DNA of 64,000 bases from an uncultured Gammaproteobacteria bacterium (GCA_964399675.1 CAYNRK010000004.1:12715-76714); one strand, 5' to 3'. Shown: positions 5,414 through 63,684, counted from the first letter of the stretch. A program made the numbers and translations. Notes: generated by a model from the sequence alone, not told the origin.

Positions 5414-5441
5414 AATTATTATCAATTCCGTAGTTTGAAAT

Positions 5442-24639: not shown

Positions 24640-24690
24640 ATATACTTATAAAATACTTCGCGATCGCGAAGTATTTTATAACAACTTTTC
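24640..24690. terminator. perfect palindrome tacttataaaatacttcgcgatcgcgaagtattttataa (bidirectional terminator-like)
   Basis: Member of the TACTTATA..CGATCG..TATAAGTA hairpin family. Confidence 0.6.
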
Positions 24691-24983: not shown

Positions 24984-25188
24984 GGCTCTTTGGTTTTCAT
25001 TACCCAGTCTCCTTTTCCTCGGTTCGAGAGTGTGGTCGATTTGGTTAAGGTTTTGTATCAGAAAACCAAAAGTCTGTCAATCCAAAACAACCTTATTATT
25101 AAAAGAGAATTTTTTACTCAAAAAGAAAAGCCGCGCCTTAGAGTAGACGGGCCGTGCGTGTGCTGCTCATGGCAGCTGGTTGCTGCGG

Positions 25189-25521
25189 TTAGGCAGCGAT
25201 CGGGACGATCTCGTAGCTTCCGAAGCGTCCGATACCACCGATGGCGGCCTTGTCAGCGCTTGTCAGGCCGAAGAGCTCGGTGTATCCCGCTGCCACGTTG
25301 GGGTGGAAGCCGGCGAGCAGTCTCGCGAGTGTTCCGGTTCTGGTGCCCATGCCGCCTTCGGGGCTGTCGAGGAAGGCCTCGAAGCTGCCATCGTCGCGAC
25401 GTTCGATGTGGTTATCCCACAGAGACCTGCCCCACATGATCCACCTCTCGACCCTGATCACTCTGCCATCTCTGACAGTGATCTTGTTCGGGGGAAGCTC
25501 GACGTTTGCTCGGCTGGCCAT
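25189..25521 (-). CDS. hypothetical protein (GC-rich island)
   Basis: 110-aa ORF in a roughly 60% GC block. Shares the downstream gcggcttttctttttga motif. Confidence 0.4.
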   Translation of the reverse strand: MASRANVELPPNKITVRDGRVIRVERWIMWGRSLWDNHIERRDDGSFEAFLDSPEGGMGTRTGTLARLLAGFHPNVAAGYTELFGLTSADKAAIGGIGRFGSYEIVPIAA

Positions 25522-30184: not shown

Positions 30185-30535
30185 TCGAGATTTCTCGCGT
30201 AAAGCGACGTGCCACGTAAAAGCTCAAGCACTCTACGTGGTGTGGTCGCCACGCGACTTTGCGTCGGCTTCGCTCGGGATGACAAAAAAGAAATAATTGT
30301 CATCTCGACCGGAGGCCCGTCAGACGGGCCGGAGCGGAGAGATCTCGAATATGCGAGATTTCTCCGCTCGCTGTGCTCGGTCGAAATGACATAATAATAA
30401 TTGGTCGAAATGACATGTATCGGTTGTCATCCCGAGCGAAGCCGAGGGATCTCGAATATTGGAACAACACGATTCGAGATTTCTCCGCTCGCTTCGCTCG
30501 GTCGAAATGACAGAAACGGCACTGACACATAGAAT
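30185..30535. repeat. cluster of family-A modules, including the cgcgtaaagcgacgtg..cacgcgactttgcg palindrome and three gtcat..gatctcgaatat..atgac units
   Basis: Read directly from the sequence. Confidence 0.85.
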
Positions 30536-32595: not shown

Positions 32596-35139
32596 GTGTT
32601 CTATTTACTTCAATTAGGATTGCAGCCTGAACAAGAACCGATGCAAGCATTTGCAGCCGGGGATTTGGGATACATGAAATGGATCCTTATCGTAGTGATT
32701 ATTTTGGCTGTTATTGCAGGCCTTGTTTTTTTAGCCAGGTTTTTTGTGATTAGGATTGCAAGTGCACGACACGCAACGTTTGGGCGTGTTGTTTTATTGA
32801 TTACATTGCCAAAGTTTCGTCGTGAAGAAGAAAGTGAGCGTGGCCCACAAAAAGAACAGGTGCACGAAGCAATTGCCGCTGCTGAGACGGTTTTTAGTTC
32901 AATTGGAGGACTAAAGGCTGAGCGTGGATTTAATGCATGGTTTTTTGGTCGAAATGATGAGGTTTCTTTTGAAATAATTGTTCAGAAAAAGTTGATTGAG
33001 TTTAAAATTAGTGTTCCAAAACACATGCGTGTGTTTTTGGAGCAGCAACTTTCAGCGGCTTATCCGGATGCATATCTGGAAGAAGTAGAAGACTATAATT
33101 TGTTTCAACCGGATGGGACCATTCTTGGCGCCCATCTTGTGTTTAAAAGACAAAGTTCTTTTCCAATAAAAACTTATCGTAAACTTGATAAAGATCCGCT
33201 TAATGCAATAACAAACGTTTTAACACAAGTTGATGAAGAGGATGGTGCGGCTTTCCAGTTTTTGGTTCGTTCGTCTTATGCAAAATGGCGTAAGAAAGGT
33301 ATTGCAATTGCATCTCGCATGCAGCAAGGAATGAAATTGGAAGAGGCAATTAAAGGTCACAAAAAATCAAAAATGTCACTTGGTGAACTGGCCGGTACTT
33401 CAGAAGCAAAGCCGGAAAAGGATTATCGTCTTTCACCGCTTGAGGAAGAGATTATAAAAGGTCTTGAGGAAAAGGCCAGCAAAGGAGGAATGGATGTTTG
33501 TGTTCGTGTTATTGCTTCATCAAAAAATCCTGCGCGCGCACAAAGTATTTTAGCTAACATGCTTAATGCATTTGCACAATATAACATTTATCAATACGGC
33601 AATTCTTTTACAAAAGTTGTTCCAGGTTCTAAAAAGAAAATCATTCGCAAGTTTATTTATCGAATATTTTCTCCTCGTAACACTGTTGTGATGAACTCTG
33701 AAGAAGTGGCAAGCTTGTGGCATCTTCCATTGCCGTGGACTGAAACTCCAAATATCAAATGGTTGGGTGCGAGAAAGGCTGCTGCGCCAGCCTCGATTCC
33801 GGATGAAAACGAAGGATCAATTGAACTTGGATACAACACATATCGCGGTATTCATACGCCTGTTTGGATGAAAGAAAAGGATCGAACACGGCACATGTAC
33901 ATTGTGGGTAAATCCGGAACCGGTAAATCTCAATTGATCGCAAATTTGGCAATACAAGATATTATTAATGGTCATGGTGTTGCTGTTGTAGAACCTCACG
34001 GAGATTTGATAGAACAGATTCTTGGAAACATTCCGCGAGAACGTGTGGACGATGTGGTTCATTTCAACCCTTCGGATCTAGAGCGTCCAGTGGGTCTTAA
34101 TATGCTTGAGACCAAAGATGAAGCAATGAAAGATTTTGCTGTTCAGGAAATGATTTCCATTTTTTACAAACTCTTTCCGCCGGAAATGATTGGTCCAATG
34201 TTTGAGCACCACATGCGAAACGTGATGCTTACGCTAATGTCAGATCCGGAAAATCCAGGGTCTATTATTGAAATTCCACGCATGTTCTCTGACGAAGATT
34301 TCCAAAAGAAATGGCGTGCAAAGGTGAAGGATCCGGTTGTTCAATCGTATTGGGTTAATGAAGTTGACAAGACTTCAGATTTTCATAAGTCAGAAATGCT
34401 TGGTTATTTGATTTCCAAAGTTGGTCGTTTTGTAGAAAACGAGATGATGCGAAATATTATTGGTCAACAAAAGTCTGCTTTTGATTTTAGAGAAATAATG
34501 GACAATAAGAAGATTTTGCTTGTGAACTTGTCTAAGGGAAAAACAGGGGATGTTAACTCTGAGCTTTTGGGTCTTATCATTGTTTCAAAATTACAAATGG
34601 CCGCGCTTGCACGTGCTGACATGCCAGAGGAAAAACGTCACGACTTTTTCTTATACATTGACGAGTTCCAAAACTTTATCACTGATTCGATTGCAACTAT
34701 TTTATCTGAGGCACGAAAGTACCGCTTGAACCTAATTATTGCTCACCAGTACATTGGTCAGCTTGTTAAGAACGGTGACACGCAAATTAAAGAAGCTGTG
34801 TTTGGAAACGTTGGAACAAACTTTGTTGCGCGTGTTGGTCCAGAGGATGTGGAAACTCTTGGCAAAATTTACTCACCGGATTTTTCCGGATATGATCTGA
34901 TCAACTCAGATAAATTTACCTGGTATGTGAAAATGATTGTGGATAACACACAGGAGAAACCATTCACACTTAACTTTAATCAACCTCCAAACGGTGATCA
35001 TGAGTTGGCATCTGCAATTAAAGAGTTGTCCAGATTGAAATTCGGTCGTGATCAGGCTATTGTAGAGGCGGATATTTTGGAACGTACCACTCTTGTTGGA
35101 GGAACATCACAACCAACACCTCCTCCATCAACTAAATAA
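32596..35139 (+). CDS. TraD/TraG/VirD4-like (type IV coupling-protein family) P-loop ATPase
   Basis: N-terminal TM helix, Walker A GKSGTGKS, Walker B LYIDEFQNF, IIAHQ motif. Start could be 32674 (MKWIL). Confidence 0.55.
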   Translation: MFYLLQLGLQPEQEPMQAFAAGDLGYMKWILIVVIILAVIAGLVFLARFFVIRIASARHATFGRVVLLITLPKFRREEESERGPQKEQVHEAIAAAETVFSSIGGLKAERGFNAWFFGRNDEVSFEIIVQKKLIEFKISVPKHMRVFLEQQLSAAYPDAYLEEVEDYNLFQPDGTILGAHLVFKRQSSFPIKTYRKLDKDPLNAITNVLTQVDEEDGAAFQFLVRSSYAKWRKKGIAIASRMQQGMKLEEAIKGHKKSKMSLGELAGTSEAKPEKDYRLSPLEEEIIKGLEEKASKGGMDVCVRVIASSKNPARAQSILANMLNAFAQYNIYQYGNSFTKVVPGSKKKIIRKFIYRIFSPRNTVVMNSEEVASLWHLPLPWTETPNIKWLGARKAAAPASIPDENEGSIELGYNTYRGIHTPVWMKEKDRTRHMYIVGKSGTGKSQLIANLAIQDIINGHGVAVVEPHGDLIEQILGNIPRERVDDVVHFNPSDLERPVGLNMLETKDEAMKDFAVQEMISIFYKLFPPEMIGPMFEHHMRNVMLTLMSDPENPGSIIEIPRMFSDEDFQKKWRAKVKDPVVQSYWVNEVDKTSDFHKSEMLGYLISKVGRFVENEMMRNIIGQQKSAFDFREIMDNKKILLVNLSKGKTGDVNSELLGLIIVSKLQMAALARADMPEEKRHDFFLYIDEFQNFITDSIATILSEARKYRLNLIIAHQYIGQLVKNGDTQIKEAVFGNVGTNFVARVGPEDVETLGKIYSPDFSGYDLINSDKFTWYVKMIVDNTQEKPFTLNFNQPPNGDHELASAIKELSRLKFGRDQAIVEADILERTTLVGGTSQPTPPPSTK

Positions 35140-36014: not shown

Positions 36015-37666
36015 GCCAAACATTATATAGAAGATATCGACCGGAAAAGTTTAAGGATATTTCAGGTCAGGAACATGTTGTTAAAACCCTGCAGAATCAG
36101 CTAAAAGCTGGTTCTGTTGCTCATGCATATCTGTTTACAGGGCCACGTGGGATTGGGAAAACCACAATTGCGCGTTTGGTTGCAAAGGCTATTAATTGCG
36201 AGAAAGTAAAAGAAAGCGAGCCATGCGGAAAATGTTCGTCATGTACAGAGATTACTACTGGAAATGCGCTGGATGTTTTTGAGATTGACGCGGCATCTCA
36301 CACTGATGTTGAAAACGTTCGTGAGAACATTATTAAAAATGTTCGATTTGCACCAAACAAGTTGAATCGAAAAGTTTATATTATAGATGAGGTTCACATG
36401 CTTTCAACCTCTGCTTTTAACGCGCTGTTAAAAACACTTGAAGAACCCCCAGAGCACGCATTATTTATTCTTGCAACAACTGAGATTCATAAAGTTCCTG
36501 AGACGATTATTAGTCGTTGTCAGCGTTTTGATTTTGCAAGGATTGACAAAGCAGAGCTTGTTAAGCGAATGAAAAGGATTTTGAAAAAAGAAGGGGTGGT
36601 TGTGGCTGATGATGTGCTTGCAGAGATTGCACGACACAGCGGTGGATTTGCGCGCGATGCGGAAAGCATGCTTGGCCAAGTGCTGGCATTGGGAGAAAAG
36701 GAGATCAGTATGGATCAGGCAATGCTTGTGCTTCCGGCAACCACAGCAATTATTGTTGAACAATTTATTGATTCAATGTTTTCCAAAGGAGCAGGGGAGA
36801 CAATCAAGCTTTTGAATCAGAATCTTGAGCAGGGAGTTGACCTTAAACATTTTTTGGATGATGTTATTTCAAAGTTGCGCGACCAGCTTCTTGAAACTGT
36901 TTCAGAAGGAAAGGCTTTAGTTTCTGTTGATCAGCTTCGGTTTGCAATTGAGAAATTTTTAAAAGCCCGCAGACATATTAATGTTGATCACTTGCCACAG
37001 CTTCCGCTTGAATTGGCTATTGTGGAGATTGTAAGTGAAGGAGCCAGGGATCAGGAGCTGGCTGTCGGGAATAGCACATCTGCGTCATTGCGAGGAGCCG
37101 AGGGCGACGACGTAAAGTCGCGTGGCAACCACGTTGCTTTACGCAAAGCAGTCTCCGTGGAAAAAAAAATTGAAAAATCGGATTTTAAGAAACAGGAGGT
37201 TGATTTGGATATCCAAGAAACACAACCCCTGTCATCTCGACCGAGCGAAGCGAGCGGAGAGATCTCGCATATTCGAGATCTCCCGGCTTCGTCCAACAAC
37301 AGCGAGGCTTTGCTTGAGACAGTACAAGAGGAGACTGTGTTCGATTCCGTCCCAGTCATATCACTCGAGGAAGTCAAAGAAAAATGGCCAACCGTGTTTG
37401 AGCAAATTCAAGAGTGCAATGCATCCTTGCCGTTATTTATGGAGTCCTGTGAGATTTGTGGAGTAAAAGACGATCATGTTGAGCTTGCGTTTGAATACGA
37501 TTTGCACGTTCAGGCAGTGAACAAAGAAAAGAACCGTGTGTTAATTGAAAAGGTGTTGGAAAAGGTTTTGGGTAAGAAAGTTAAGGTGAGGGCTTTGAAA
37601 ACAGAAAAAAAGGAATCAGATTCGGTCAAAGATTTGCTTGAAGAGTTTGGTGGGAGTGTAGTGTAA
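36011..37666 (+). CDS. dnaX: DNA polymerase III subunit tau/gamma
   Basis: YRPEKF..GQEHVV..AYLFTGPRGIGKTT clamp-loader AAA+ module. Carries an in-frame family-A repeat insertion at 37075..37300. Confidence 0.9.
   Translation: MSQTLYRRYRPEKFKDISGQEHVVKTLQNQLKAGSVAHAYLFTGPRGIGKTTIARLVAKAINCEKVKESEPCGKCSSCTEITTGNALDVFEIDAASHTDVENVRENIIKNVRFAPNKLNRKVYIIDEVHMLSTSAFNALLKTLEEPPEHALFILATTEIHKVPETIISRCQRFDFARIDKAELVKRMKRILKKEGVVVADDVLAEIARHSGGFARDAESMLGQVLALGEKEISMDQAMLVLPATTAIIVEQFIDSMFSKGAGETIKLLNQNLEQGVDLKHFLDDVISKLRDQLLETVSEGKALVSVDQLRFAIEKFLKARRHINVDHLPQLPLELAIVEIVSEGARDQELAVGNSTSASLRGAEGDDVKSRGNHVALRKAVSVEKKIEKSDFKKQEVDLDIQETQPLSSRPSEASGEISHIRDLPASSNNSEALLETVQEETVFDSVPVISLEEVKEKWPTVFEQIQECNASLPLFMESCEICGVKDDHVELAFEYDLHVQAVNKEKNRVLIEKVLEKVLGKKVKVRALKTEKKESDSVKDLLEEFGGSVV
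37075..37300. repeat. family-A repeat inserted in frame inside dnaX (about 75 codons)
   Basis: gcgtcattgcgagg..acgtaaagtcgcgtggcaaccacg..gtcatctcgaccgagcgaagcgagcggagagatctcgcatattcgagatctc lies within the ORF and translates as ..SLRGAEGDDVKSRGNHVALR..SSRPSEASGEISHIRDL... Confidence 0.8.
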
Positions 37667-38012: not shown

Positions 38013-38085
38013 ATTATCCTGAATTTTTAAGCGACAAAAAACTGAAACAGGGCAGCGGTAATGTTGTCTGGAAAAATTTCCTAGA

Positions 38086-38142
38086 AAAAAATACTTATAA
38101 AATACTTCTCGATCGAGAAGTATTTTATAAGTATTTTTTTGG
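38086..38142. terminator. 54-bp perfect palindrome (A-tract tacttataaaatacttctcgatcgagaagtattttataagta T-tract)
   Basis: Bidirectional terminator-like. Same family as 24640..24690, 5369..5413 and 54185..54236. Confidence 0.7.
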
Positions 38143-38225: not shown

Positions 38226-38672
38226 TCACACGCGCGTGCAGGTTTTGGCCTCGCAGTCAATGTGACATGCATCGCCCTTTTCGATTTCTTGTCCCCTGAA
38301 GTTGGCACCAAGCACGTCTTCTCCGTAGTCCTCAGGGAACCACCTCGTATACTCGAAGTGGGTTACCAGGATCAGGAAATCGGCTTGATCCGCATGCTCC
38401 TGGATCAGGGCAATGGCAGCGTCTGAGTCCATTGGATGGCTGGCTTCCGACCAGAGCACCTCGTGTTCGGTGAAGCTGACACCGAACAGGTCGGCCAGGA
38501 TCTGGGCGCTCTCGCTTGCTCGATCCTTGGTCGATGAGAGTATGCACACGGAAGCGTTGCCGATGCGCTCCTTCAGCCTAGCGTGCAGTGCGCGAATCTG
38601 CTCGGTACCGCGTTTGGAGAGGTGGTCATCGGCTTTGTAGTGACCGTGCCGGACCACAATCAGACTCTTCAT
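38226..38672 (-). CDS. histidine phosphatase family protein (SixA / phosphoglycerate-mutase-like), GC-rich island
   Basis: N-terminal LIVVRHGHY (RHG catalytic motif). SD ggagga. Followed by ccgccag..ctggcgg hairpin and T-tract. Confidence 0.7.
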   Translation of the reverse strand: MKSLIVVRHGHYKADDHLSKRGTEQIRALHARLKERIGNASVCILSSTKDRASESAQILADLFGVSFTEHEVLWSEASHPMDSDAAIALIQEHADQADFLILVTHFEYTRWFPEDYGEDVLGANFRGQEIEKGDACHIDCEAKTCTRV

Positions 38673-39270: not shown

Positions 39271-39315
39271 CTCACCCTGCGGGGCGCCTACTCTAGGGCG
39301 CCCCGTGTTCGTTTT
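39271..39315. terminator. GC-rich hairpin cggggcgcc-tactcta-gggcgcccc followed by T-tract
   Basis: Bidirectional. Also the 3' end of the minus-strand RimK-like gene. Confidence 0.7.
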
Positions 39316-40207
39316 AAAAATTTATTGAAAATTCGATTATTTTTTTGGCAATGTCTTTGCCGGTAACTTCCTCCAAGGCTTTAAATCCAGGATTGGCATT
39401 TACTTCCAAAACAAGCGGTCCACTTTCAGATCTAATAAGATCAACTCCTGCAATTTCAAGGTTAACTGATTTTGCAACTTTTACTGCAAGTTGTTTTTCC
39501 TGATCTGATAATTCAATTTCTTTTCCTGTTCCACCTGTTGAAGTGTTTGCTCTAATGTCTCCAGAAGACGCTGATCGTTCCATTGCGGCAATTACTTTAT
39601 TTCCAATCACAAACGCACGCACATCTTTTCTTTCTGCCTCTTTGACAAATCGTTGAACAATAATTGGATTGTGATCTCGGATTGCTAAGTATTCAGCAAT
39701 TGGCTGAAAAGTCTCTTTGTCTGGCGCATAAAATACACCCTTACCATGAGTTCCAAATGCAATTTTGATAATCACAGGAAAACCAAGTTGATTTGCAAAC
39801 ACTAAAGCTTGTTCAGGATTTTTTGTGATTGCTGATTCAGGATGAGGAATGTCATTATTTTGAAAATGTAGTAATTGTCTAATTTTGTTTTTTGATAAAC
39901 CAAGATGATGCTTGCTGTTTATCAATTTAAATCCAGATTGATTTAAATAATGAATCGGATGCATGTGCAAGCTTGGCTCTTCAATAAAGTTTGGTCTTGG
40001 AAGAATTACATCAAGTTTTGGAAGTGGTTTTCCATCATAAAGATAACCCCCCCTAACCCCCCCTTGAAAGGGGGGGGAACAAAACAAAAAGTTTGGTTCG
40101 TACAATCGAACTGTTTCATGTCCAAGCTCTTTTGCAGCTTCTTCAAGTCGATCAACACTTGAATATTGCTCCCAGGATTGTTTTGAAATAAGAATTCCAA
40201 TTTTCAT
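39314..40207 (-). CDS. RimK-family ATP-grasp ligase (alpha-L-glutamate ligase-like)
   Basis: ATP-grasp C-terminal half (..AGVDLIRSESGPLVLEVNANPGF..). Contains an in-frame family-C element (..[12 protein letters not shown]..). The track N-terminus 40208..40321 is read-through of a family-A repeat. Confidence 0.7.
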   Translation of the reverse strand: MKIGILISKQSWEQYSSVDRLEEAAKELGHETVRLYEPNFLFCSPPFQGGVRGGYLYDGKPLPKLDVILPRPNFIEEPSLHMHPIHYLNQSGFKLINSKHHLGLSKNKIRQLLHFQNNDIPHPESAITKNPEQALVFANQLGFPVIIKIAFGTHGKGVFYAPDKETFQPIAEYLAIRDHNPIIVQRFVKEAERKDVRAFVIGNKVIAAMERSASSGDIRANTSTGGTGKEIELSDQEKQLAVKVAKSVNLEIAGVDLIRSESGPLVLEVNANPGFKALEEVTGKDIAKKIIEFSINF

Positions 40208-40325
40208 ATTATTTCTATATGTCATCTCGACCGGAGACCCGTCTGACGGGCCGGAGCGGAGAGATCTCGAACACGAATATGCGAGATCCCTCGACTCACT
40301 GTCGTTCGCTCGGGATGACACAGTG
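40208..40325. repeat. family-A palindromic element
   Basis: gtcatctcgaccggagacccgtctgacgggccggagcggagagatctcgaacacgaatatgcgagatccctcg..gggatgac. Confidence 0.8.
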
Positions 40326-44130: not shown

Positions 44131-44245
44131 AACTATGTAGGACAGTCACGTTGTATAATTTCGGCAGACTCGCTTCGCTCGTGCTGGCGAAATTATACAA
44201 TATACCTGTTGATGGCGTCCTGGAGGTTCGTTGGAGGATTGTGGG
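44131..44245 (+). repeat. family-B repeat (about 110 bp), copy 1
   Basis: gacagtcacgttgtataatttcggcag..ctggcgaaattatacaa..cctgttgatgg..ttcgttggaggattgtg. Near-identical to 45412..45530 and 56521..56635. Confidence 0.85.
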
Positions 44246-44462: not shown

Positions 44463-45296
44463 CTAGGCCGCGAGCGGGAAGCGGTCGTGAAGGAGCTTCA
44501 TGGCGTTGAGCCCGATGAGTGCGGCTTCTTCGTCGCCGGTGACCTCGAACGTGTTGGTCTGGCGATTGCCGTAGATGGCGTTGACCGAGCCGGCCCAGTA
44601 GCCGCCATGGGTCATGCACCAGACGTAGATCGTTGCCGACTCCATGGAGTAGAGCAATACACCGCGTTGGGTCAGCTCGTCGTGGAGCATTTGCAAGCGC
44701 GGAGGGATGTAGCCCATGTCGTCCGGTCGTGCCTGGCCTTCGTTGAAGCACGTGGTTGTTGCCTCAATGCCGACGTGGTGCGGCAGGCTGAGAGTCTCGG
44801 CAGCCTCGATGAGCGCAGCGATCACTCGGTGGTCAGCGAATGCAGGATACTCGATCGGCGCCCAGTTGGTGCTGGCGCCATCCAGTCGAACAGCCCCGCT
44901 TGCGATGGCTGATTCACCGACGTTCGGCTCTCTCTGGAGCGTGGAGCATGAGCCCACACGGATAAAGCGCTCTGCTCCCGAACGCACTGCCTCGGGCAGC
45001 ACAATGCCCGTGGATGCGCTGCCCATGCCGGTTGTGACCACAGACATGGGAACGCCCTGGAATTCGCCGGTGAAGCTCCTGAGCCCCCGGTGATCACCGA
45101 CCTTGATCGCCCCGGGACCGAAGAAGCGGCTCACCAACTCCTCAGCATCCTTGATCGGATCTGTTCCGGCGATCAGCTCTGCCCGTTCGGGTGAGCCCAC
45201 CAACAGGCAGTGGGGCGCCAGATCGTGTGCGTCTGTGTGGAGATGGTATTGCTTGCCACCTGCAGAGGTTGGGGCGTCAGCCTTTCTATCGCTCAT
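44463..45296 (-). CDS. nucleoside phosphorylase, PNP/UDP family 1 (purine/uridine phosphorylase-like), GC-rich island
   Basis: ..HCLLVGSPERAELIAG.. N-terminal fold and ..TGMGSASTGIVLPE.. segment typical of PNP_UDP_1. Confidence 0.7.
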   Translation of the reverse strand: MSDRKADAPTSAGGKQYHLHTDAHDLAPHCLLVGSPERAELIAGTDPIKDAEELVSRFFGPGAIKVGDHRGLRSFTGEFQGVPMSVVTTGMGSASTGIVLPEAVRSGAERFIRVGSCSTLQREPNVGESAIASGAVRLDGASTNWAPIEYPAFADHRVIAALIEAAETLSLPHHVGIEATTTCFNEGQARPDDMGYIPPRLQMLHDELTQRGVLLYSMESATIYVWCMTHGGYWAGSVNAIYGNRQTNTFEVTGDEEAALIGLNAMKLLHDRFPLAA

Positions 45297-45411: not shown

Positions 45412-45530
45412 GGGGGACAGTCACGTTGTATAATTTCGGCAGACTCGCTTCGCTCGTGCTGGCGAAATTATACAACGTACCTGTTGATGGTGGCTTGGGG
45501 GTTCGTTGGAGGATTGTGTGAGTGCGGGTG
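45412..45530 (+). repeat. family-B repeat, copy 2 (direct repeat of copy 1)
   Basis: Over 90% identity by eye. Confidence 0.85.
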
Positions 45531-45576: not shown

Positions 45577-47433
45577 ATGACCGATCAAAAGCAAATTCGG
45601 AATTTTTGCATTATTGCACACATTGATCATGGTAAGTCGACCCTTTCGGATCGGCTTCTTGAATTTACCGGCACAGTTGAAAAGAGAAAAATGCAAAATC
45701 AGATTTTGGATACAATGGAGCTGGAAAGGGAGAAAGGAATTACAATAAAGCTTGCGCCGGCAAGGATGGAGTATGACTACACACCAATAACCCCCCCTAA
45801 CCCCCCCTTGAAAAGGGGGGGAACTTACGTTCTCAATCTAATTGATACTCCGGGTCATGTTGATTTTAATTATGAAGTTTCTCGATCATTGGCAGCTGTT
45901 GAGGGCGCAATACTTTTAGTTGATGCAACTCAAGGTGTGCAAGCGCAAACCATTGCAAATCTTTTTTTGGCCATTGAAGAGGATTTAGAAATTATCCCTG
46001 TTCTTAATAAGATCGATCTTCCGGCAGCAGATGTTCCAGCACGAACAAAAGAAATTGTGAAACTTATTGGATGTGATCCAAAAGAGGTTTTGGCTGTAAG
46101 TGGAAAAACAGGCGAAGGTGTTGAAGCGCTTCTTGATGCAATTGTTAAGCGCATTCCAGCACCAAAAGGAAATACAGATGCGAATCCTCGAGCTTTGATT
46201 TTTGATTCTTTTTATGATGACTACCGTGGAGTCATGGCTTATATTCGCATGGTAGATGGTTTGCTTGAGAAAGGTTCAAAAATTGAAATGATTGGAACAA
46301 GTGCGCGCGCTGAAGTGTTGGAAATAGGGGCTGTTACTCCAAATGGACTAAAACCAAGTCCTGAATTTTCAACCGGGCAAATCGGTTATGTTGTCACAGG
46401 GCTTAAAGATATTTCCGCATGTCGAGTTGGTGATACTATAACTTCGGGAACCCCCCCTAACCCCCCCTTGAAAAGGGGGGGAACGTCACCGCTTCCGGGC
46501 TATAAAGATGTAAAGCCAATGGTTTTTGCTGGAATGTTTCCGCAAGAAGGTAATGACTTTCAAAAGTTAAGAGAAGCAATTGAAAGGCTAAAATTAAATG
46601 ATTCAGCGTTGATTTATGAACCAGAACACTCACCGGCGCTTGGTTATGGATTTCGGTGTGGGCTTTTGGGAATGTTGCATTTGGAGATTTTAAAAGAACG
46701 ACTTGAGCGTGAGTTTAATTTGGAACTTGTTGTTACTGTTCCATCAGTTGCGTATCAGGTTCATCAGCGTTCCAAAGAAATGATTATAATCAAGAGTCCG
46801 CTTGATCTTCCGGATCCGTCACATATTGATTTTATTGAAGAGCCATGGGTAAAATTAGATATTGTTACACCAACGGATTATGTTGGTGCTGTAATGCAGT
46901 TGGTGCAGGATAGGCGCGGTACTTACAAGAACACAGAATACCTTTCTGAGAATCGGGCGATTTTGCATTACGAGATTCCGCTTTCAATGATCATTGTTGA
47001 TTTTTACGATAAACTTAAAGGAGTAACAGCCGGATACGCATCAATGAATTATGAGGTCATTGATTATCGTGAAGCAAATGTTGTGCGTATGAATATTTTA
47101 GTGGCTGAGGATACTGTTGATGCGTTTGCTACACTTGTCTATCGAGATGAGGCGGATAAGGCTGGACGGAGAATTGTGAAGTCACTTAAAGAATCAATTC
47201 CGCGAGCAAACTTTGTAATCAAACTGCAAGCCGCTGTTGGTGGTAAGATTGTTGCAAGTGAAAGAATTTCCGCAGTTCGAAAAGACGTGACTGCAAATTT
47301 GTATGGAGGTGACGTAACACGGAAGCGCAAACTGCTTGAAAAGCAAAAGAAAGGAAAAGCTAAAATGCTAGCTCATGGAAAAGGAAAGGTAAATATTCCA
47401 ACGAATGCATATTTGAATGTTTTAAAAAGATAG
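45577..47433 (+). CDS. lepA: elongation factor 4
   Basis: FCIIAHIDHGKSTLSDRLL G1 motif and LepA-specific C-terminal domain. Two in-frame family-C insertions (PPNPPLKRGGT) at 45789..45825 and 46449..46485. Confidence 0.9.
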   Translation: MTDQKQIRNFCIIAHIDHGKSTLSDRLLEFTGTVEKRKMQNQILDTMELEREKGITIKLAPARMEYDYTPITPPNPPLKRGGTYVLNLIDTPGHVDFNYEVSRSLAAVEGAILLVDATQGVQAQTIANLFLAIEEDLEIIPVLNKIDLPAADVPARTKEIVKLIGCDPKEVLAVSGKTGEGVEALLDAIVKRIPAPKGNTDANPRALIFDSFYDDYRGVMAYIRMVDGLLEKGSKIEMIGTSARAEVLEIGAVTPNGLKPSPEFSTGQIGYVVTGLKDISACRVGDTITSGTPPNPPLKRGGTSPLPGYKDVKPMVFAGMFPQEGNDFQKLREAIERLKLNDSALIYEPEHSPALGYGFRCGLLGMLHLEILKERLEREFNLELVVTVPSVAYQVHQRSKEMIIIKSPLDLPDPSHIDFIEEPWVKLDIVTPTDYVGAVMQLVQDRRGTYKNTEYLSENRAILHYEIPLSMIIVDFYDKLKGVTAGYASMNYEVIDYREANVVRMNILVAEDTVDAFATLVYRDEADKAGRRIVKSLKESIPRANFVIKLQAAVGGKIVASERISAVRKDVTANLYGGDVTRKRKLLEKQKKGKAKMLAHGKGKVNIPTNAYLNVLKR

Positions 47434-49378: not shown

Positions 49379-49475
49379 GAAATACTAACCACCCCTAACC
49401 CCTCCTTGAAAAGGAGGGGAATAATGCATGTCGGTTGAAAGTTCTCCCCCTTTTTAAGGGGGAGTTAGAGGGGGT
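49379..49475. repeat. family-C palindromic element (aaccacccctaacccctccttgaaaaggaggggaa) plus second hairpin tctccccctttttaagggggag
   Basis: Direct repeat of 49852..49892. The same core sits in frame inside lepA, ligA, pilD and the RimK-like gene. Confidence 0.85.
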
Positions 49476-49488
49476 TATGATTTTGGAT

Positions 49489-49848
49489 ATGTATAACGAA
49501 CTTTTCAATAAAAAAGAAAAGAAAACTTTCAGACAAAAATTACGAACTGATCCAACAGCAGCAGAAAAACAGTTGTGGCCACATCTGCAAGGTAGACAAA
49601 TAGAAGGATTGAAGTTTCGGCGTCAGCATGGAATCGGAAAGTATGTCGTCGATTTCTATTGTCCTGAAATCAAACTTATTATAGAGGTTGATGGTGATTC
49701 ACATTTTGAACCTGGAGCTCAAGAAAAAGATGTTGAACGAGAGAGAAGTCTTATTAATAGTGGTTTTCGAGTTTTGCGCTTTACCGATCGTGACATTTTT
49801 GATTCGATGGAAGATGTGATTGAAATTATAAAATCAAATTTATACTAG
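49489..49848 (+). CDS. DUF559 / Vsr-like (PD-(D/E)xK fold) endonuclease-domain protein, copy 1
   Basis: ..KFRRQHGIGKYVVDFYCPEIKLIIEVDGDSH..RVLRF.. pattern of the very-short-patch-repair-like DUF559 family. Start set after the repeat-derived 18 codons. Confidence 0.7.
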   Translation: MYNELFNKKEKKTFRQKLRTDPTAAEKQLWPHLQGRQIEGLKFRRQHGIGKYVVDFYCPEIKLIIEVDGDSHFEPGAQEKDVERERSLINSGFRVLRFTDRDIFDSMEDVIEIIKSNLY

Positions 49849-49851: not shown

Positions 49852-49892
49852 TACTAACCACCCCTAACCCCTCCTTGAAAAGGAGGGGAACT
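49852..49892. repeat. family-C palindromic element
   Basis: gaaatactaaccacccctaacccctccttgaaaaggaggggaa. Confidence 0.85.
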
Positions 49893-51963: not shown

Positions 51964-52734
51964 ATGACACTCTTCATACTTTTTCTTTTAGGAATTTGTG
52001 TGGGGAGTTTTTTAAATGTTGCGATTTTTAGAGCGCATGAAGACGAGAAGTTGCGTGGGCGTTCAAAGTGCATGAAATGTGAGATTCCAATCGGTGCTAA
52101 AGATTTGGTGCCGGTTTTAAGCTACTTGTTGCTAAAAGGTAGGTGTAGAAATTGCAAACAAGTTTTCTCATGGCAATACCCAGCAGTTGAGCTTGCAACC
52201 GGATTGCTTTTTATAATTCCCCCCCTTATCAAGGGGGGGTTAGGGGGGGTTAGCTTTGATTTATTGCCGATCCTAATCCGCGACTGGGTTTTCATTTCTT
52301 TTCTAATAATCATTTTTGTTTACGATCTAAAGCACATGTTGATTTTGGATCGTTTTACAATTCCAGCAATGATATTTGCTTTGATCGCAAACCTTTGGAT
52401 TGGAATCATTCCAGCATGGTTATTGTTGCTTGGGGCAGTTGTGTTAGCAGGATTTTTTTACATTCAGTTTTTGATTTCAAAAGGCAAATGGATTGGAGGG
52501 GGAGATATTCGACTTGGAGCACTCATGGGATTTATGCTTGGACTCCAGTATGGATTGGTTGCTTTGTTTTTAGGATATGTATTTGGTGCTGTGTTTGGTT
52601 TGATTTTGATGGCGCTTAATAAAGCCAATAAAAAAACAATGATTCCTTTGGGAACATTTTTAACCATTTCAACGCTCATAACTCTTTTTTACGGGCACAA
52701 CATTCTTGATTGGTATTTAGGGTTTTTCGTCTGA
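51964..52734 (+). CDS. pilD: prepilin peptidase (A24 family)
   Basis: N-terminal CxxC..CxxC zinc module (CMKC..CRNC) and a polytopic A24 domain. In-frame family-C insertion at 52218..52253 (..PPLIKGGLGGV..). Confidence 0.8.
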   Translation: MTLFILFLLGICVGSFLNVAIFRAHEDEKLRGRSKCMKCEIPIGAKDLVPVLSYLLLKGRCRNCKQVFSWQYPAVELATGLLFIIPPLIKGGLGGVSFDLLPILIRDWVFISFLIIIFVYDLKHMLILDRFTIPAMIFALIANLWIGIIPAWLLLLGAVVLAGFFYIQFLISKGKWIGGGDIRLGALMGFMLGLQYGLVALFLGYVFGAVFGLILMALNKANKKTMIPLGTFLTISTLITLFYGHNILDWYLGFFV

Positions 52735-52740: not shown

Positions 52741-52890
52741 ATGTCCCCCTTTTCAAGGGGGACTACAGGGGGTTAGCATTTCATAAGCATAACCACCCCT
52801 AACCCCTCCTTGAAAAGGAGGGGAATAATGCATGTCGGTTGAAAGTTCTCCCCCTTTTTAAGGGGGAGTTAGAGGGGGTTAGCATTTTGA
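52741..52890. repeat. family-C element cluster (gtcccccttttcaagggggac; aaccacccctaacccctccttgaaaaggaggggaa; tctccccctttttaagggggag)
   Basis: Paralogous to 49379..49475. Confidence 0.85.
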
Positions 52891-52892: not shown

Positions 52893-53252
52893 ATGTATAA
52901 CGAACTATTTAATAAAAAAGACAAGAAAACTTTTAGACAAAAATTACGTACTGATCCAACAGCAGCAGAAAAGTTGTTATGGTTGCATTTGCAGGGTAAG
53001 CAAATGGAAGGATTAAAGTTTCGGCGGCAGCACGGAATCGGAAAGTATGTCGTTGATTTCCATTGTCCTAAAATTAAACTTGTTATTGAGGTTGATGGTG
53101 ATTCGCATTTTGAATCAGGAGCTCAGCAAAAAGATTCCGAACGAGAGCAATATCTAATCAACAAAGGTCTTCGAGTTTTACGGTTTACTGATCGTGACAT
53201 TTTTGATTCGATGGAGGACGTTGTTGAAATTATTCAATCAAACTTATACTAA
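52893..53252 (+). CDS. DUF559 / Vsr-like endonuclease-domain protein, copy 2
   Basis: About 90% identical to copy 1 at protein level (alignment by eye). Confidence 0.7.
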   Translation: MYNELFNKKDKKTFRQKLRTDPTAAEKLLWLHLQGKQMEGLKFRRQHGIGKYVVDFHCPKIKLVIEVDGDSHFESGAQQKDSEREQYLINKGLRVLRFTDRDIFDSMEDVVEIIQSNLY

Positions 53253-53285
53253 CCACCCCTAACCCCTCCTTGAAAAGGAGGGGAA
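53245..53285. repeat. family-C palindromic element
   Basis: tactaaccacccctaacccctccttgaaaaggaggggaa. Confidence 0.85.
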
Positions 53286-53456
53286 GAATGCGAGATCTTC
53301 AATCAACTATTGACATTTTAGTCTTTTTTTGTTAATTTATTTTTCTCTTTGCCACAGTGTTTAGTGCACCAACTTGATGCCTTAAACGTTGTGGCAAAGG
53401 GCGCTGCTTGCGCATATCGCGTAGGAGTTTGTTGGTTGCCATGGCAAAGGAACACA

Positions 53457-54044
53457 ATGGCTGCAAGTATTGGTCAGGCATTGGAGCTCATGACAAAGCT
53501 CGCAACAGCAGTCCCGTGGGGCGAGCTGGACAAACAGTTCGTTCAAGGTCTCATCGCTGACCCAGAGATCGGTTCTGAGTTCGTCTACTTCCTTCGAAAC
53601 TGGGGCGGGTCGGTCGTCGGTGAGCAGATCATCGACCTCGAAGTCAATCCGTTCATTCCGGATGGTTCTGAGATCTGCCCCAAGGACCAGATCGACAGCA
53701 GCGTTTGCGGCAAGTTCATCTTCGACCCCGATCAGATCGAGCTACATCTCGATTCGGGTCAGGAAGACGAGGAGTCGATCCAAGGCTATGACCTGCGCAG
53801 AGCCCTTGAGGGTCAGCCGGTTTTGCCCGCACATGTTCTCGACTTCCTGCTCGAGAACCCGCACTTCATCCCGGAGAGCTGGGAGGACAAGGGGGTGTTC
53901 TTCTGGGGCACCATCTACCGCTGCTCGGGCGGCAGCCTGTATGTCCGTTGCCTCCGCTGGCGCGGTGCTAGGTGGTGCTGGCGCTACGGCTGGCTTGGCG
54001 ATCACTGGGGCTCCGACGATCCTGCTGCGGTTTCCGCAAGCTAG
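53457..54044 (+). CDS. hypothetical protein (GC-rich island)
   Basis: ORF in a roughly 60% GC block. Preceded by TTGACA-like promoter elements and a 5' hairpin ctttgccacag..ctgtggcaaag. Confidence 0.45.
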   Translation: MAASIGQALELMTKLATAVPWGELDKQFVQGLIADPEIGSEFVYFLRNWGGSVVGEQIIDLEVNPFIPDGSEICPKDQIDSSVCGKFIFDPDQIELHLDSGQEDEESIQGYDLRRALEGQPVLPAHVLDFLLENPHFIPESWEDKGVFFWGTIYRCSGGSLYVRCLRWRGARWCWRYGWLGDHWGSDDPAAVSAS

Positions 54045-54184
54045 GATCTGGGAATCTGGAGCTCTGGTTACTAAGCTCTTTGAACTCTTGACTCCTAGCT
54101 CTCAACGGCCAATCACACTCGTGAACGGTCGTTTTTCAATTTAATTATTGATTTTTAAATTATCGAAAAACTTTTTAGAAAAAA

Positions 54185-54236
54185 TACTTATACCATTCGT
54201 GACGATCGTCAGTTTTGGTATAAGTATTTTTTAGTA
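54185..54236. terminator. perfect hairpin acttatacca..tgacgatcgtca..tggtataagt flanked by A-tract and T-tract
   Basis: Third copy of the 5369/5948 element. Confidence 0.7.
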
Positions 54237-54323: not shown

Positions 54324-56348
<2,025 letters not shown>

Positions 56349-56520: not shown

Positions 56521-56635
56521 TTATGGGGGACAGTCACGTTGTATATAATTTCGGCAGTACTCGCTTTGTTCCGTGCTGGCGAAATTATATACAACGTACC
56601 TGTTGATGGCAGACTGAGTGTTCGTCGGAGGATTG
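56521..56635 (+). repeat. family-B repeat, copy 3
   Basis: gacagtcacgttgtatataatttcggcag..ctggcgaaattatatacaa..cctgttgatgg..ttcgtcggaggattgtg. Confidence 0.8.
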
Positions 56636-60464: not shown

Positions 60465-60545
60465 CTCATGTCATCCCGAGCGAGCGCAGCGAGCCGAGGG
60501 ATCTCGCATATCCGAGATTTCTCCACTCGCTGCGCTCGGTCGAAA
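60465..60545. repeat. family-A palindromic element
   Basis: gtcatcccgagcgagcgcagcgagccgagggatctcgcatatccgagatttctcc..tcgaaatgac. Confidence 0.8.
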
Positions 60546-60563
60546 TGACAAGGAAGTAAGGAG

Positions 60564-61124
60564 GTGCGAATGCACAACTCGGTTGTTGCCATGTTCTGTG
60601 GCCCGCACGAGGACGGAAGGCCTACCTCCCGTCGCATCAACGCAGCGATCCAGACGGCCATGGGTCTGAAGGCACCGTTGATGATCGCCGGGGACGCGAA
60701 CGATGGCAAGGACCTGGAGTTGTTTGCCGGTCGCGCACACCGCCGTTCTCCCGCCCTGGATGTTGTCAAGCTCTACGACGAGCGCGCCAACACGCTCGCT
60801 GACGTCCAGATTCTCATCGAAGAGCTTCGCGAGCACAGGCATCGCGGAGTCACCACGATCTACCTGGTCACGGACTGGTGGCACATGCCCCGTTCGTTCG
60901 TGATGCTCGCCCTGGAGCTTCAGAACTTGATGCCAGAGCGTCGCTTTGACATCCAGATCGTGAACGTGCGGTGTCCTGAGCCGCCTCATGAAGAGCTTCT
61001 CGGAGAGCGGCAGGGAATCATGCACTACCTTGCTGGCACTTACGGCAGCCACGAGCTCACACGAAAGCCGTACGGAAAGCCAGCACAGGAACGTGCACTC
61101 GCGGCTCCTGTAGCCGCGAACTAA
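60564..61124 (+). CDS. DUF218 (YdcF/SanA-like) domain protein, GC-rich island
   Basis: ..IYLVTDWWHMPRSFVML.. matches the conserved DUF218 core. Strong SD aggaggt. Confidence 0.6.
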   Translation: MRMHNSVVAMFCGPHEDGRPTSRRINAAIQTAMGLKAPLMIAGDANDGKDLELFAGRAHRRSPALDVVKLYDERANTLADVQILIEELREHRHRGVTTIYLVTDWWHMPRSFVMLALELQNLMPERRFDIQIVNVRCPEPPHEELLGERQGIMHYLAGTYGSHELTRKPYGKPAQERALAAPVAAN

Positions 61125-61179
61125 AGAGCGCCAGACCATCTACTCGGTCCAGCGCTCATTTCTTTTTATTATTTTGCGT

Positions 61180-62166: not shown

Positions 62167-62244
62167 AAAACAACCTACTTCTATAGTAGGTCATTTTTTT
62201 GTTGCAAAGTCAAATGTTTTTATGTGAATAAAAGAAAGAGCATT

Positions 62245-62273
62245 GACAATTAGAACACTTTGTAGTATATTTT
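62245..62273 (+). promoter_or_regulatory. sigma70-like promoter TTGACA-17-TAGTAT upstream of the GC-rich lipoprotein gene
   Basis: Hexamers read directly. RBS aaggagg follows. Confidence 0.5.
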
Positions 62274-62308
62274 TTTCTTGTCAGAGTCTGGGGAACCAAG
62301 GAGGCACA

Positions 62309-62761
62309 ATGAGACTGCAAGGCATTCTGACACTGATCGCACTGCTTTTCCTGTCGGTGGTGGCTTGCAGACCGCCGCTCGAGTTCCTGCGTGGCGATGA
62401 TCACCTTTCCGATCAGAAAGAGTCCGAGCTCGATATGAGCCGTGCCGATCCGATCGTCAAGACAGTCGCCAAGATCTACAAGGGCAAGGAGGAGCTTCGA
62501 CAAGACGACATGGTCGATCTTTCCTGCGACGATCTCTACTTGCTCTGGCGAGCACTCTTCAGCAAGTACTTTCACTCAAACCTCGGCACCTGTCTGAAGG
62601 AGGGTGAGATCTGTTTGCGTCGGGAGGGTGTGGCCTGGATCGCAGAGGACGATCATGGTTTCAAGGACGACCCGCATACCATCAAGAGGTTCACCAAGGT
62701 CGACCGGAGCAATCGGCGTGCAATCGCCGCAATGAGATCTGAGAGTGGTTGTACTGACTAG
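62309..62761 (+). CDS. hypothetical lipoprotein (GC-rich island)
   Basis: Signal peptide with lipobox ..SVVAC. About 60% GC. Confidence 0.5.
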   Translation: MRLQGILTLIALLFLSVVACRPPLEFLRGDDHLSDQKESELDMSRADPIVKTVAKIYKGKEELRQDDMVDLSCDDLYLLWRALFSKYFHSNLGTCLKEGEICLRREGVAWIAEDDHGFKDDPHTIKRFTKVDRSNRRAIAAMRSESGCTD

Positions 62762-62898: not shown

Positions 62899-63684
62899 AT
62901 GAGAAATCGTACGAGCACTGCGGCGAGCTGGATGGCAATCGCCATCGTGTTCGCCTTCTCCGTTCCCATGGTCGCAACAGCTGAGGAATCCGACACCGAA
63001 GCCGGAGCCGAAGGCGAAGGTGAGGGCGAAGGTGAGGGCGAGGACGGAGCCGAACCCGCCGAGGTGGTCTTGACAGGGGGAGGAACGGACGACGTCGTTC
63101 TGTCGAACACCGGCGGTGGTGGCAAGAAGGCCAAGAAGAAGGTCAAGAAGGGCAAGTGCGCTGACGGGAGCGACTGCGACTGTCGGAAGGCGGTCAGAGT
63201 CGCGCTCAAGGAAGCACGCGACGGATTCAAGAAGGCCAAGAAGAAGGCCAAGAAGGCCGCTGGAGAGCAGCAAGAGGCAGCCATCAGGGCTGCGGTCGAG
63301 AAGGCCGAGACAGCACTTCGCGCAGAGCTTCACAAGGGCGAAGAGGAGCGAGCCGAGGAAAAGGTCAAGAGGGCTCTCGCAGGCAGGCGTTCAGAGTTCC
63401 ACCTGGAGTGGATCCTCGAGGGCATGTTCGCGGGAACCGAGCTCACAGACCACGTGCTCGCCGAGCTGGATTGTGCACAACTGGGCATGCTCAAGATCAT
63501 GCCGCGTGCACGTCACGGATATGTCCCGGAAGACATGGAAGTGCGCAGGAAGCTCCTTGCTCAGGAGTGGTACAAGCCGAATCCTGCAGTCGACGACGCA
63601 GCTCTGCCCAGCCGCATGACCTCGGCGGATCAGCTCAACGAGCTCCGGATCAACAAGGCGCTCACTGCCAAGGAATGCGAGTAG
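62899..63684 (+). CDS. secreted protein with acidic (EGEG)n and Lys-rich regions and C-terminal YARHG-like domain (GC-rich island)
   Basis: Signal peptide. C-terminal ..[28 protein letters not shown].. matches the YARHG motif. SD gagaggagg. Confidence 0.55.

Follow-up and report, generated by a model that had tools for sequence, protein, structure and literature searches.

A 36-nt repeat of triplex-motif type in frame in lepA and other genes of a putative Candidatus Uhrbacteria genome, and its association with DUF559 genes

BoxC, PIT and TM (or TMECO) are names for the same kind of bacterial repeat, the class II intrastrand triplex motif (Holder et al., 2015, PMC4666352; see Bergler, 1992, and Hoyne and Maher, 2000, cited therein, for earlier descriptions). 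By the published definition, the motif is made up of a pyrimidine stem, a loop of 3-6 nt, a purine stem, a 3-nt loop and a second purine-rich stem. The third block lies antiparallel to the central purine block, with G.G-C, A.A-T and T.A-T triads (PMC4666352). TMECO itself measures 37 nt and has TTA (“type A”) as its second loop. A census counted 3610 copies in 262 proteobacterial genomes, the motif is very abundant in cyanobacteria, and it folds as a stable triplex in vitro (PMC4666352). In E. coli K-12, its copies are said to be “always” intergenic and to be unassociated with transposons, phages or plasmids; they are linked to local genomic instability, and earlier work found no promoter or terminator activity of PIT elements in E. 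coli (PMC4666352, and references therein). Here we describe a 36-nt repeat of this type in a stretch of 64,000 nucleotides (GCA_964399675.1 CAYNRK010000004.1:12715-76714, deposited under an uncultured Gammaproteobacteria bacterium and hereafter called the window). In the window, copies of the repeat lie in frame inside lepA and three further genes, and other copies surround two genes of the DUF559 family.

Two other described systems come close in different respects. Rickettsia palindromic elements (RPE), which are about 100-150 bp long and confined to Rickettsia (PMC10969869), resemble the window repeat as selfish sequences found both between genes and in frame in unrelated housekeeping genes, where they give a recurrent tolerated peptide. 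A first-pass annotation of the window had drawn this parallel, which is fair as an analogy of outcome, not as relatedness. Indeed, the window unit has only 36 nt and a triplex layout, is near-identical across phyla, has a candidate nuclease partner and shows no apparent sequence relationship to RPE. REP/REPIN sequences with their RAYT partners (PMC3116915; PMC3733652) share with the window repeat short GC-rich hairpins, inverted doublets and the bracketing of the gene of the presumed mover, and the clusters in the window resemble BIMEs. However, REPs are extragenic, have a GTAG or CGTC head, lack a third block and depend on a Y1 (IS200-like) transposase. No transposase or RAYT gene was found among the ~60 open reading frames (ORFs) of the 64 kb analysed, and the partner candidate is here a PD-(D/E)XK nuclease, DUF559, and not a Y1 transposase.

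The repeat unit and its triplex layout

The 36-mer AACCCCCCCTAACCCCCCCTTGAAAAGGGGGGGAAC occurs twice on the + strand, both times within lepA (Table 1), and the two copies are identical at 36 of 36 positions. By chance no exact copy is expected, as judged from 100 dinucleotide shuffles. The base that follows, base 37, is T in one case and G in the other; hence, the shared unit has 36 nt, that is 12 codons. The first-pass annotation, which had reported a 37-bp string present twice in lepA, was right about two identical copies, but its string carries eight consecutive G where the DNA has seven. It had also described the copies as stop-free insertions in the same frame of about 11 residues; phase and open frame are as stated, the length is 12 codons, and both copies encode the identical 12-residue peptide.

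A search allowing up to three mismatches to the 36-mer yielded three extra intragenic copies. These lie in frame, with at most two mismatches, in a RimK-like gene, in the prepilin peptidase gene (pilD) and in ligA. Altogether, 12 copies are present in the window, five in four genes and seven around the two DUF559 genes. All are found within ~17 kb (39-56 kb), and the remaining 47 kb contain none. Copies start with (T)AACC. Those around the DUF559 genes are variants. The four forward ones form a subfamily, AACCACCCCTAACCCCTCCTTGAAAAGGAGGGGAA, identical to the lepA 36-mer at 33 of 36 positions, and the other three are reverse-oriented. Intergenic copies had been placed earlier at 49379, 49852, 52790 and 53245; they exist, but their true starts are those of Table 1 and they belong to the variant subfamily.

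The resemblance between copies is not restricted to the G/C tracts, since a TAA spacer, a TTGAAAA loop and AA..AA(C/T) ends are also common to them. A finder for class II motifs, built on the published definition (PMC4666352), recovers exactly the 12 copies of the window and none in 20 shuffles. Thus, the possibility raised earlier that the likeness is only low complexity of G/C tracts is contradicted.

Table 1. Features of the window discussed in the text (positions counted from the first letter of the stretch)
Feature	Position	Strand	Remarks
RimK-like ATP-grasp gene	39314..40321	-	Pfam PF08443, E = 1e-48
Repeat copy in RimK-like gene	40045..40080	+ (gene -)	1 mismatch; predicted to be translated from the G-rich strand, 12 residues
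lepA (EF4), 618 aa	45577..47433	+	Pfam GTP_EFTU, EFG_C, LepA_C; intact, all G motifs conserved
Repeat copy 1 in lepA	45789..45824	+	Residues 72-83; C-rich strand is sense; G-domain loop of the beta2-beta3 hairpin, immediately ahead of DTPGH
Repeat copy 2 in lepA	46449..46484	+	Residues 292-303; after the last strand of domain II
Variant repeat CCACCCC / CCCCTCC / GGAGGGG	49387..49422	+	Intergenic, upstream of DUF559 gene 1
Variant repeat CCCCCTC / CTCCCCC / GGGGGAG	49442..49476	-	Inverted; abuts the start of DUF559 gene 1
DUF559 gene 1, 123 aa, Vsr-like PD-(D/E)XK endonuclease	49477..49848	+	PF04480, E = 1.5e-32; between recJ and rnhA
Variant repeat	49856..49891	+	Directly 3' of DUF559 gene 1; direct repeat of the 49387 copy
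Prepilin (type IV leader) peptidase gene	51964..52734	+	Pfam A24_N_bact and Peptidase_A24
Repeat copy in prepilin peptidase gene	52216..52251	-	Loop variant TTGATAA; peptide IPPLIKGGLGGV; loop between transmembrane segments
Degenerate variant repeat	52743..52772	-	Just past the prepilin peptidase stop codon
Variant repeat	52791..52826	+	Upstream of DUF559 gene 2
Inverted variant repeat	52846..52880	-	Abuts the start of DUF559 gene 2
DUF559 gene 2, 123 aa	52881..53252	+	86% aa identity to gene 1; located between pilD and ligA
Variant repeat	53251..53286	+	Directly 3' of DUF559 gene 2
ligA, NAD-dependent DNA ligase	54336..56348	+	Pfam, PDB alignment
Repeat copy in ligA	54815..54850	+	2 mismatches; 12-residue peptide; adenylation-domain loop before EVRGE
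GC islands	20313-21620, 24834-25439, 38226-38672, 44463-45296, 53349-54044, 60471-61139, 62243-62761, 62899-63684		

On the minus strand, the lepA copies read CCCCCCC-TTTTCAA-GGGGGGG-TTA-GGGGGGG. A hairpin of 9 bp, including a TT/AA extension, closes on a 3-nt loop (-18 kcal/mol as RNA), and, read on the C-rich strand, an extra C-run precedes it, giving three blocks and no plain palindrome. In seven of nine variant types, the outer run is interrupted by T or A at the mirror position of the stem interruption, in agreement with the T.A-T and A.A-T triads allowed in class II motifs (PMC4666352), whereas a direct-repeat (tandem duplication) model fits none of the types. Two other folds were considered and rejected: pairing of the first C-run with a G-run, as the interruptions of the variants are mirrored and not direct, and a pyrimidine-motif triplex on the C strand, which leaves the A-for-T variants unexplained while a purine-motif class II triplex on the G strand explains them.

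By its architecture, the repeat is thus very likely a member of the BoxC/PIT/TM class. It shares with this class the order C stem, loop, G stem, TTA and G stem on the G-rich strand, a size of about 36-37 nt, frequent inverted pairs, high conservation within a genome, a range that includes Proteobacteria and Cyanobacteria, and a third block that obeys the triads. In contrast to TMECO, it has pure C7/G7 stems of 7 and not 9 nt, and its triplex is a predicted one. The TMECO consensus, CCCTCNCCC N3-6 GGGNGAGGG N3 GGGNGAGGG, has no match on either strand of the window; since the architecture is the same, we regard the window element as a C7/G7 sequence variant. Two further differences concern its surroundings. 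While TMECO is reported as always intergenic, five of the 12 window copies, and many in other phyla, lie in frame in ORFs; and while TMECO is described as unassociated with mobile elements, the remaining window copies bracket DUF559 genes. Rfam, at gathering as well as permissive thresholds, returned only tRNAs and chance matches. Full-text literature searches with the sequence or its peptides gave nothing, and the element was not found described in the literature on in-frame palindromic elements in Patescibacteria, on DUF559 and repeats, or on MITEs (transposable elements of miniature size with inverted repeats) of Thiomargarita.

Presence in relatives and residence in reading frames

The best matches of LepA and LigA carry source names of Candidatus Uhrbacteria (Patescibacteria, also called candidate phyla radiation or CPR) and, judged by these names, the host organism would be a Candidatus Uhrbacteria bacterium. 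Codon alignments were made with the closest LepA orthologues with fetchable DNA, L052, L034 and L053 (82, 81 and 80% amino-acid identity; 597-606 aa). At lepA site 1, none of the three has an insert. Site 2 is empty in L052, L053 and L035; L034 carries there a variant insert in which a C:G pair of the stem is replaced by T:A through changes on both sides, that is, in a compensatory manner. About 110 of 120 related Uhrbacteria LepA proteins lack both inserts. In LepA proteins of solved structure from Aquifex, Thermus and E. coli, gaps of 10 and of 5-7 residues stand opposite sites 1 and 2. Consequently, the two lepA segments are repeat copies and not ancestral sequence, as the first reading of the window had proposed.

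The other genes give a similar picture. E. coli LigA has a 7-residue gap opposite the ligA copy. Among relatives, the ligA site is empty in L053, holds a copy of the variant type in L035 and a copy of opposite orientation in L025. The prepilin peptidase site is filled in L006, L029 and L032, and no element is found there in L053 and L035. L053 is syntenic with the window over 12 kb (lepA-recJ-rnhA-pilM..pilD-ligA-gatCA-lgt), where it has neither a single motif nor a DUF559 gene. The pilD copies of the window, L029 and L032 share 32 identical nt, despite diverged flanking protein. Both L029 (2565-2783) and L032 are CPR-like contigs, in each of which the prepilin peptidase has two copies in frame. 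The second of these sites, following ..NAIT, is common to the two contigs and partly decayed in L032, and both pilD copies of L029 are extended toward a full four-block palindrome. A LigA from another sample, P0241 (99% identity), is eight amino acids shorter and was tried as an empty allele; it was rejected because it carries the insert, its deletion being unrelated. The missing residues, CSVPESKC near residue 255 (~55100), represent an in-frame population indel.

From these comparisons, we hold with strong confidence that the intragenic segments result from insertion of a dispersed repeat. The possibility that they are ancestral or lineage-specific low-complexity loop sequence, or an artefact of assembly, is negligible. 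It is true that the loops vary in length, that homopolymer runs are prone to error and that G302V lies inside the second lepA copy (residue 302, 46479-46481, the sole difference to the database representative P0001, either a population variant or a homopolymer sequencing error). However, the lepA copies are identical over 36 of 36 positions, non-homopolymer positions included, the same unit occurs in unrelated genes and phyla, finished genomes among them, the locus is the same in independent ENA and JGI assemblies, and the closest orthologues do not have the segments. The term “mobile palindrome” proposed earlier thus holds as far as a dispersed repeat in unrelated genes and between genes is meant; the unit has three blocks and is no plain palindrome, and we infer the mobility of the repeat itself.

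The insertions are not all recent, because related inserts fill the same loops of Uhrbacteria proteins in a patchy manner. Some Uhrbacteria LepA have related site-1 inserts (TPPSPPLVRGG and others), each after a similar prefix of 5-6 aa. Many LigA carry TTP(N/S)PSLKRRG at the same loop, some with further inserts nested in it. In relatives' genes, decayed copies remain in frame after loss of the hairpin. The two carriers of a lepA site-2 insert are not sisters in an unbootstrapped neighbour-joining tree. In the window, the copies inside genes are all of C7 type, and the orthologous ligA copy of L035 is of the variant type. Altogether, the pattern points to a few tolerant loops at which copies were repeatedly gained, lost or laterally converted, probably with homogenisation within the genome in addition.

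Several observations do not fit easily with simple insertion of a unit that is then translated. Carriers of a prefix-sharing insert at lepA site 1 occur in at least four clades in which the nearest neighbours are empty (same unbootstrapped tree), and loss or lateral conversion could account for this instead of repeated insertion. At this site, the element comes with a non-repeat prefix of 5 aa. The net change in length is variable, about 0 for pilD compared with L053, +7 aa for lepA site 2 and for ligA compared with E. coli, and +16 aa for lepA site 1. No clean target-site duplication is seen at the five intragenic sites, a TAC(A/G) repeat at lepA site 1 being unconvincing; with this and with a unit of 36 nt, the hallmarks of MITEs (terminal inverted repeats with target-site duplication, usually 50-500 bp) are not observed. 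Finally, translation of the inserts is predicted from the sequence.

How can such a repeat persist in genes? In the 36-mer, TAA and TGA close two forward frames and TAG one reverse frame, which leaves three of the six open. The five intragenic copies occupy exactly these three frames, all are multiples of three, and both strands of the element serve as sense strand among the host genes. Three recurrent peptides, xPPLxKGGLGGV among them, are encoded in the four genes. The unit would bring 12 codons in which, whatever the open frame, the C- and G-runs are read as Pro-Pro and Gly-Gly, residues that disrupt secondary structure. Because of this length, of the three open frames and of the Pro/Gly content, a copy would persist only where an open frame coincides with a tolerant surface loop, and it would then be translated as an extra Pro/Gly-rich loop. 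Spread, or the upkeep of uniformity in the genome, would involve DNA breakage with repair or copying. On balance, a 36-nt dispersed repeat of triplex type that survives in genes through stop-free frames and tolerant loops is the probable explanation.

The protein context agrees with this explanation. The view that the lepA inserts occupy loops between conserved segments is confirmed by the PDB alignments and by an AlphaFold2 (AF2) model, in which the G domain and domain II are well predicted (mean predicted local distance difference test, pLDDT, 68.7). Insert 1 is modelled as a loop between strands 61-67 and 83-90 (pLDDT <50 at residues 73-78) and insert 2 as coil after strand 287-290 (pLDDT <50 at residues 293-301). 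In the RimK-like gene, the true start is probably a Met near 40207.

It is likely that the intragenic copies are translated rather than removed, because every copy consists of 12 codons, keeps to an open frame and falls in a loop, and because decayed copies of relatives stay in frame although the hairpin is gone. Removal before or during protein synthesis, whether as a mini-intron, through RNA editing or by ribosomes that bypass the element (compare T4 gene 60 and the byp elements of mitochondria), might be suggested by the stable 9-bp hairpin (-18 kcal/mol) in the mRNA and by the unusually high DNA conservation at orthologous pilD sites. Yet the lengths divisible by three, the stop-free frames, the hairpin-less copies still in frame and the use of both element strands as sense make it quite improbable. 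There is moreover no stop codon after the start of the element and no Rfam match; of the features of programmed bypass, matching take-off and landing codons were not searched for, and the others are contradicted by stop-free 36-nt copies whose decayed forms remain in frame.

A second alternative is that copies are kept for a use in place, as a translational pause that lets domains fold, a hairpin acting in mRNA stability or regulation, a signal for replication or recombination, or a Pro/Gly linker in the protein. The 32 nt shared by the three pilD copies, the compensatory changes that maintain stems and the position of lepA site 2 at a domain boundary speak for such a use. We nevertheless consider it improbable, as the closest relatives manage with no copy at all, neither the host genes nor the sites are related to one another, copies have decayed in many lineages and neither promoter nor terminator activity was found for PIT elements in E. 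coli (cited in PMC4666352). Survival by open frames and tolerant loops remains our preferred explanation for the copies in genes.

The element is also found far from the window. Searched by the 21-mer core of the repeat, 21 stretches were retrieved in 11 species-representative genomes, from Cyanobacteria (including finished Crocosphaera and Scytonema), Thiomargarita, two Patescibacteria-like metagenome-assembled genomes (MAGs) and a Thermodesulfobacteriota MAG, as well as in 12 metagenome contigs, Beggiatoa included. The viral contigs searched contained no copy of the core. About 28 of 38 non-redundant copies are located inside ORFs of at least 190 aa. Host genes elsewhere encode DnaX, a DHFR-like protein, a GH57 enzyme, restriction-modification enzymes of Type ISP/Eco57I/MmeI and a NACHT protein. 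Cyanobacteria, in which the present element is common, are also the home of the repeats of Elhai et al. (2008). These are reportedly small dispersed repeats of 21-27 nt from heterocystous species, in eight families, hairpin-associated, apparently mobile and nested in one another. In-frame residence in essential genes and a link to DUF559 are not known to be part of that description.

Association with DUF559 genes

The repeats outside genes are arranged in the same manner around both DUF559 genes of the window (Table 1). The two cassettes share ~505 bp at 87% identity, with identical leading repeat regions, and the stop codon of DUF559 gene 2 falls within the downstream repeat. A third DUF559 paralogue, in a different genomic context, has the same repeat bracket. 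The recJ-rnhA and pilD-ligA pairs are adjacent in the P0004 contig, L035 and L053, and each is split by a DUF559 cassette in the window; both cassettes are insertions relative to these syntenic relatives. In L035, the recJ-rnhA spacer holds an inverted pair of motifs whose halves are separated by only 23 nt and by no gene, which is the arrangement expected of an empty site or of a gene-less derivative. The closest solved structure to the product of DUF559 gene 1 is 3HRL. PADLOC gave only weak nuclease-domain matches for DUF559.

The association was then measured at 14 independent DUF559 loci, from Photobacterium, Pseudanabaena, Azospirillum, Sinorhizobium, E. coli, Deinococcus, Neisseria, Sphingomonas, Synechocystis, Picosynechococcus, Desulfotalea, Komeilibacteria, Aquimarina and another Uhrbacteria. 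Hairpins formed by a pyrimidine run and a purine run (Y/R hairpins) reach 5.06/kb within 200 nt of the ends of DUF559 genes versus 1.02/kb elsewhere (p = 6e-11; 14 of 14 loci). For full class II triplex motifs at the same loci, 20 are near and 22 far (p = 4e-8; 11 of 14 loci). The claim of enrichment rests on these tests; an earlier strict hairpin test, with only four independent loci, had fallen short of significance (p = 0.076).

E. coli has ycjD as its DUF559 gene, with two exact matches to TMECO a short way downstream. BoxC was reportedly first described downstream of envM, which is fabI, so that the original BoxC locus would lie beside ycjD. By our estimate, with 23 copies spread over 4.6 Mb, ~0.004 would be expected that close to ycjD by chance. 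The supplementary table of Holder et al. lists, without comment, a TMECO located between fabI and ycjD; the paper itself mentions neither DUF559 nor any endonuclease (PMC4666352). In a literature search, we found no later paper naming a link between the motif and DUF559. Among DUF559 homologues, 8 of 120 proteins end in “PP” and 37 of 120 have motif-like termini, versus none of 120 LepA controls, the terminal patterns having been chosen after viewing the data.

DUF559 genes are also seen in other arrangements. In L017:2-2926 (Synechococcales MAG S06), an MmeI-family enzyme that is otherwise complete has a whole DUF559 domain (residues 376-483) nested in frame in its MmeI_Mtase domain, where HGNALRLDW precedes it and FIFGNPPFVG follows; the nested part comes with triplex motifs at its flanks and with three VGGVQSSNLDRG repeats in tandem. 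In L062 (Synechocystis sp. B12 plasmid CP101716.1, 13242-17547), a DUF559 gene has “hypothetical” ORFs on one side and, on the other, an ORF for a BREX pglX methyltransferase, on the same strand. The pglX region is fragmented, and the locus may represent a further methyltransferase gene that a DUF559 cassette has split or invaded. In L054 (Photobacterium sp. GJ3 NZ_CP073579.1, 1650021-1654353), 12-18 hairpins of triplex type, one of them with the TTGAAAA loop of the window, are found within 4 kb around a DUF559 gene, in what looks like a dense motif array.

The Vsr-like fold suggests a comparison with homing endonucleases, since I-Bth0305I (PDB 3r3p) has such a fold and is grouped with VSR/DUF559 (PMC3424549). 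As with homing endonuclease genes, genomes either have or lack the DUF559 ORF at a given site flanked by conserved genes, and it can even lie in frame in a host gene (L017). Unlike them, it has no surrounding intron or intein, its flanks are repeats and not split host sequence, and its activity is putative. As a mechanism, DUF559 would nick or cut at or near the motif, and repair would then copy motif-bearing DNA into or between sites. Such cutting and repair would lead to the bracket around the gene, to gene-less motif pairs, to local clustering and to uniformity within the genome. The bracketing of the DUF559 gene could be likened to that of RAYT by REPs, or to target sites around homing-endonuclease genes.

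Against a causal role, adjacency of motif and gene is not causation. The copies flanking DUF559 in the window belong to a different subfamily than the five intragenic ones, and the window contains no cognate pair. The four-locus test and the late choice of terminal patterns, given above, count in the same direction. Furthermore, triplex motifs were described in unstable regions and without association with mobile elements (Holder et al., PMC4666352), and small selfish genes might also accumulate in such regions.

The latter argument leads to the main alternative, in which the intragenic copies are patches templated by repair. In this model, no dedicated enzyme transposes the repeat; the structure-prone sequence stalls replication and breaks, breaks in loops with microhomology (such as ACCCC or AAAGG) are patched from other copies, gene conversion makes the copies of a genome uniform, and DUF559 genes merely accumulate in the same unstable spots. 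The reported tie of the motif to local instability agrees with this, and so do the lack of target-site duplications, the variable net length changes, the repeated filling of the same loops (in both orientations for ligA) and the fact that copies within the window are more alike than they are to the orthologous L035 copies. Moreover, empty sites hold AAAGGG (lepA site 1) or ACCCCC (lepA site 2, L035), and the common ligA loop reads ..P-KG... However, these microhomologies are short and were noticed post hoc. The model also leaves unexplained why motifs abut both the start and the stop of DUF559 genes, on both sides and in many phyla, and why three DUF559 paralogues in different contexts have an identical bracket. 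We judge it unlikely, though serious enough to be kept in mind.

For DUF559, a role as mobilising or homogenising nuclease is plausible but unproven, and the chance that it is causally involved in the spread of the repeat falls somewhat short of even. A wider proposal is more tentative still and should be seen as rather doubtful. According to it, DUF559 (YcjD-like) endonucleases would have the BoxC/PIT/TM motifs as their non-autonomous partners or as their recognition sites, and the two would form a very small cross-phylum selfish element spread by nuclease-driven copying or conversion, with motif and nuclease ORF both able to live in frame in genes.

The kind of element, BoxC/PIT/TM, is already known. 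What appears to be new is its residence in frame in a CPR bacterium's housekeeping genes and, among cyanobacteria, in genes that include those for restriction-modification, as well as its consistent association with DUF559 genes at 14 independent loci in many phyla, E. coli ycjD included. A structured repeat studied as an intergenic “instability” motif thus also resides in lepA, ligA, dnaX and the prepilin peptidase gene of CPR bacteria with reduced genomes. There, it presumably reshapes surface loops, and it can inflate the apparent divergence of proteins and break assemblies. A survival rule for selfish DNA in coding sequences would be a length divisible by three, stop-free frames and loop-forming residues. 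The origin of BoxC/PIT/TM has been unknown since the 1990s, and the partnership with DUF559 would, if true, supply one. What spreads these motifs and what DUF559 proteins such as YcjD do, two old unknowns, become a single question.

Other repeats and islands of the window

A second palindromic repeat of ~68 nt (ACAGTCACGTTGTATAATTTCGGCAG ... CTGGCGAAATTATACAACGTACCTGT) occurs at 44142-44209, 45417-45484 and 56530-56603. Two of its copies bracket a PNP_UDP phosphorylase gene of high GC content (0.62; 44463..45296). As neither L035 nor the P0004 contig, both syntenic relatives, has this gene, it resembles an inserted cassette. It is one of eight single-gene islands (Table 1) with 53-62% GC, versus ~40% for the genome. 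Most of them have no Pfam match, and they may be orphan genes or recent foreign acquisitions. The island at 53349..54044 directly follows the second DUF559 cassette.

GC-rich palindromes of a third family (TGTCATCCCGAGCGA...TCGGTCGAAATGACA) are located at 2712-2773, 8810-8871, 30268-30489, 37253-37288 and 60469-60550. Upstream of recJ and of the RimK-like gene, copies of this family create false N-terminal extensions of the ORFs (..HPERGAAKPRDLAY..). In P0020, another Uhrbacteria, the loop at lepA site 1 is occupied by a related peptide, GHPERAKRVEGS; other repeat families thus also enter this loop. A fourth family is made of AT-rich perfect or near-perfect palindromes (AAAAATACTTATA...TCGA...TATAAGTATTTTT) in intergenic positions, at 5370-5417, 5947-5992, 24646-24681, 38085-38140 and 54179-54232, which may be terminators or another repeat. 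Finally, positions 32596-35139 encode an 847-aa protein with weak TrwB/VirD4-type coupling-protein domains, in what would be a CPR bacterium of small genome.

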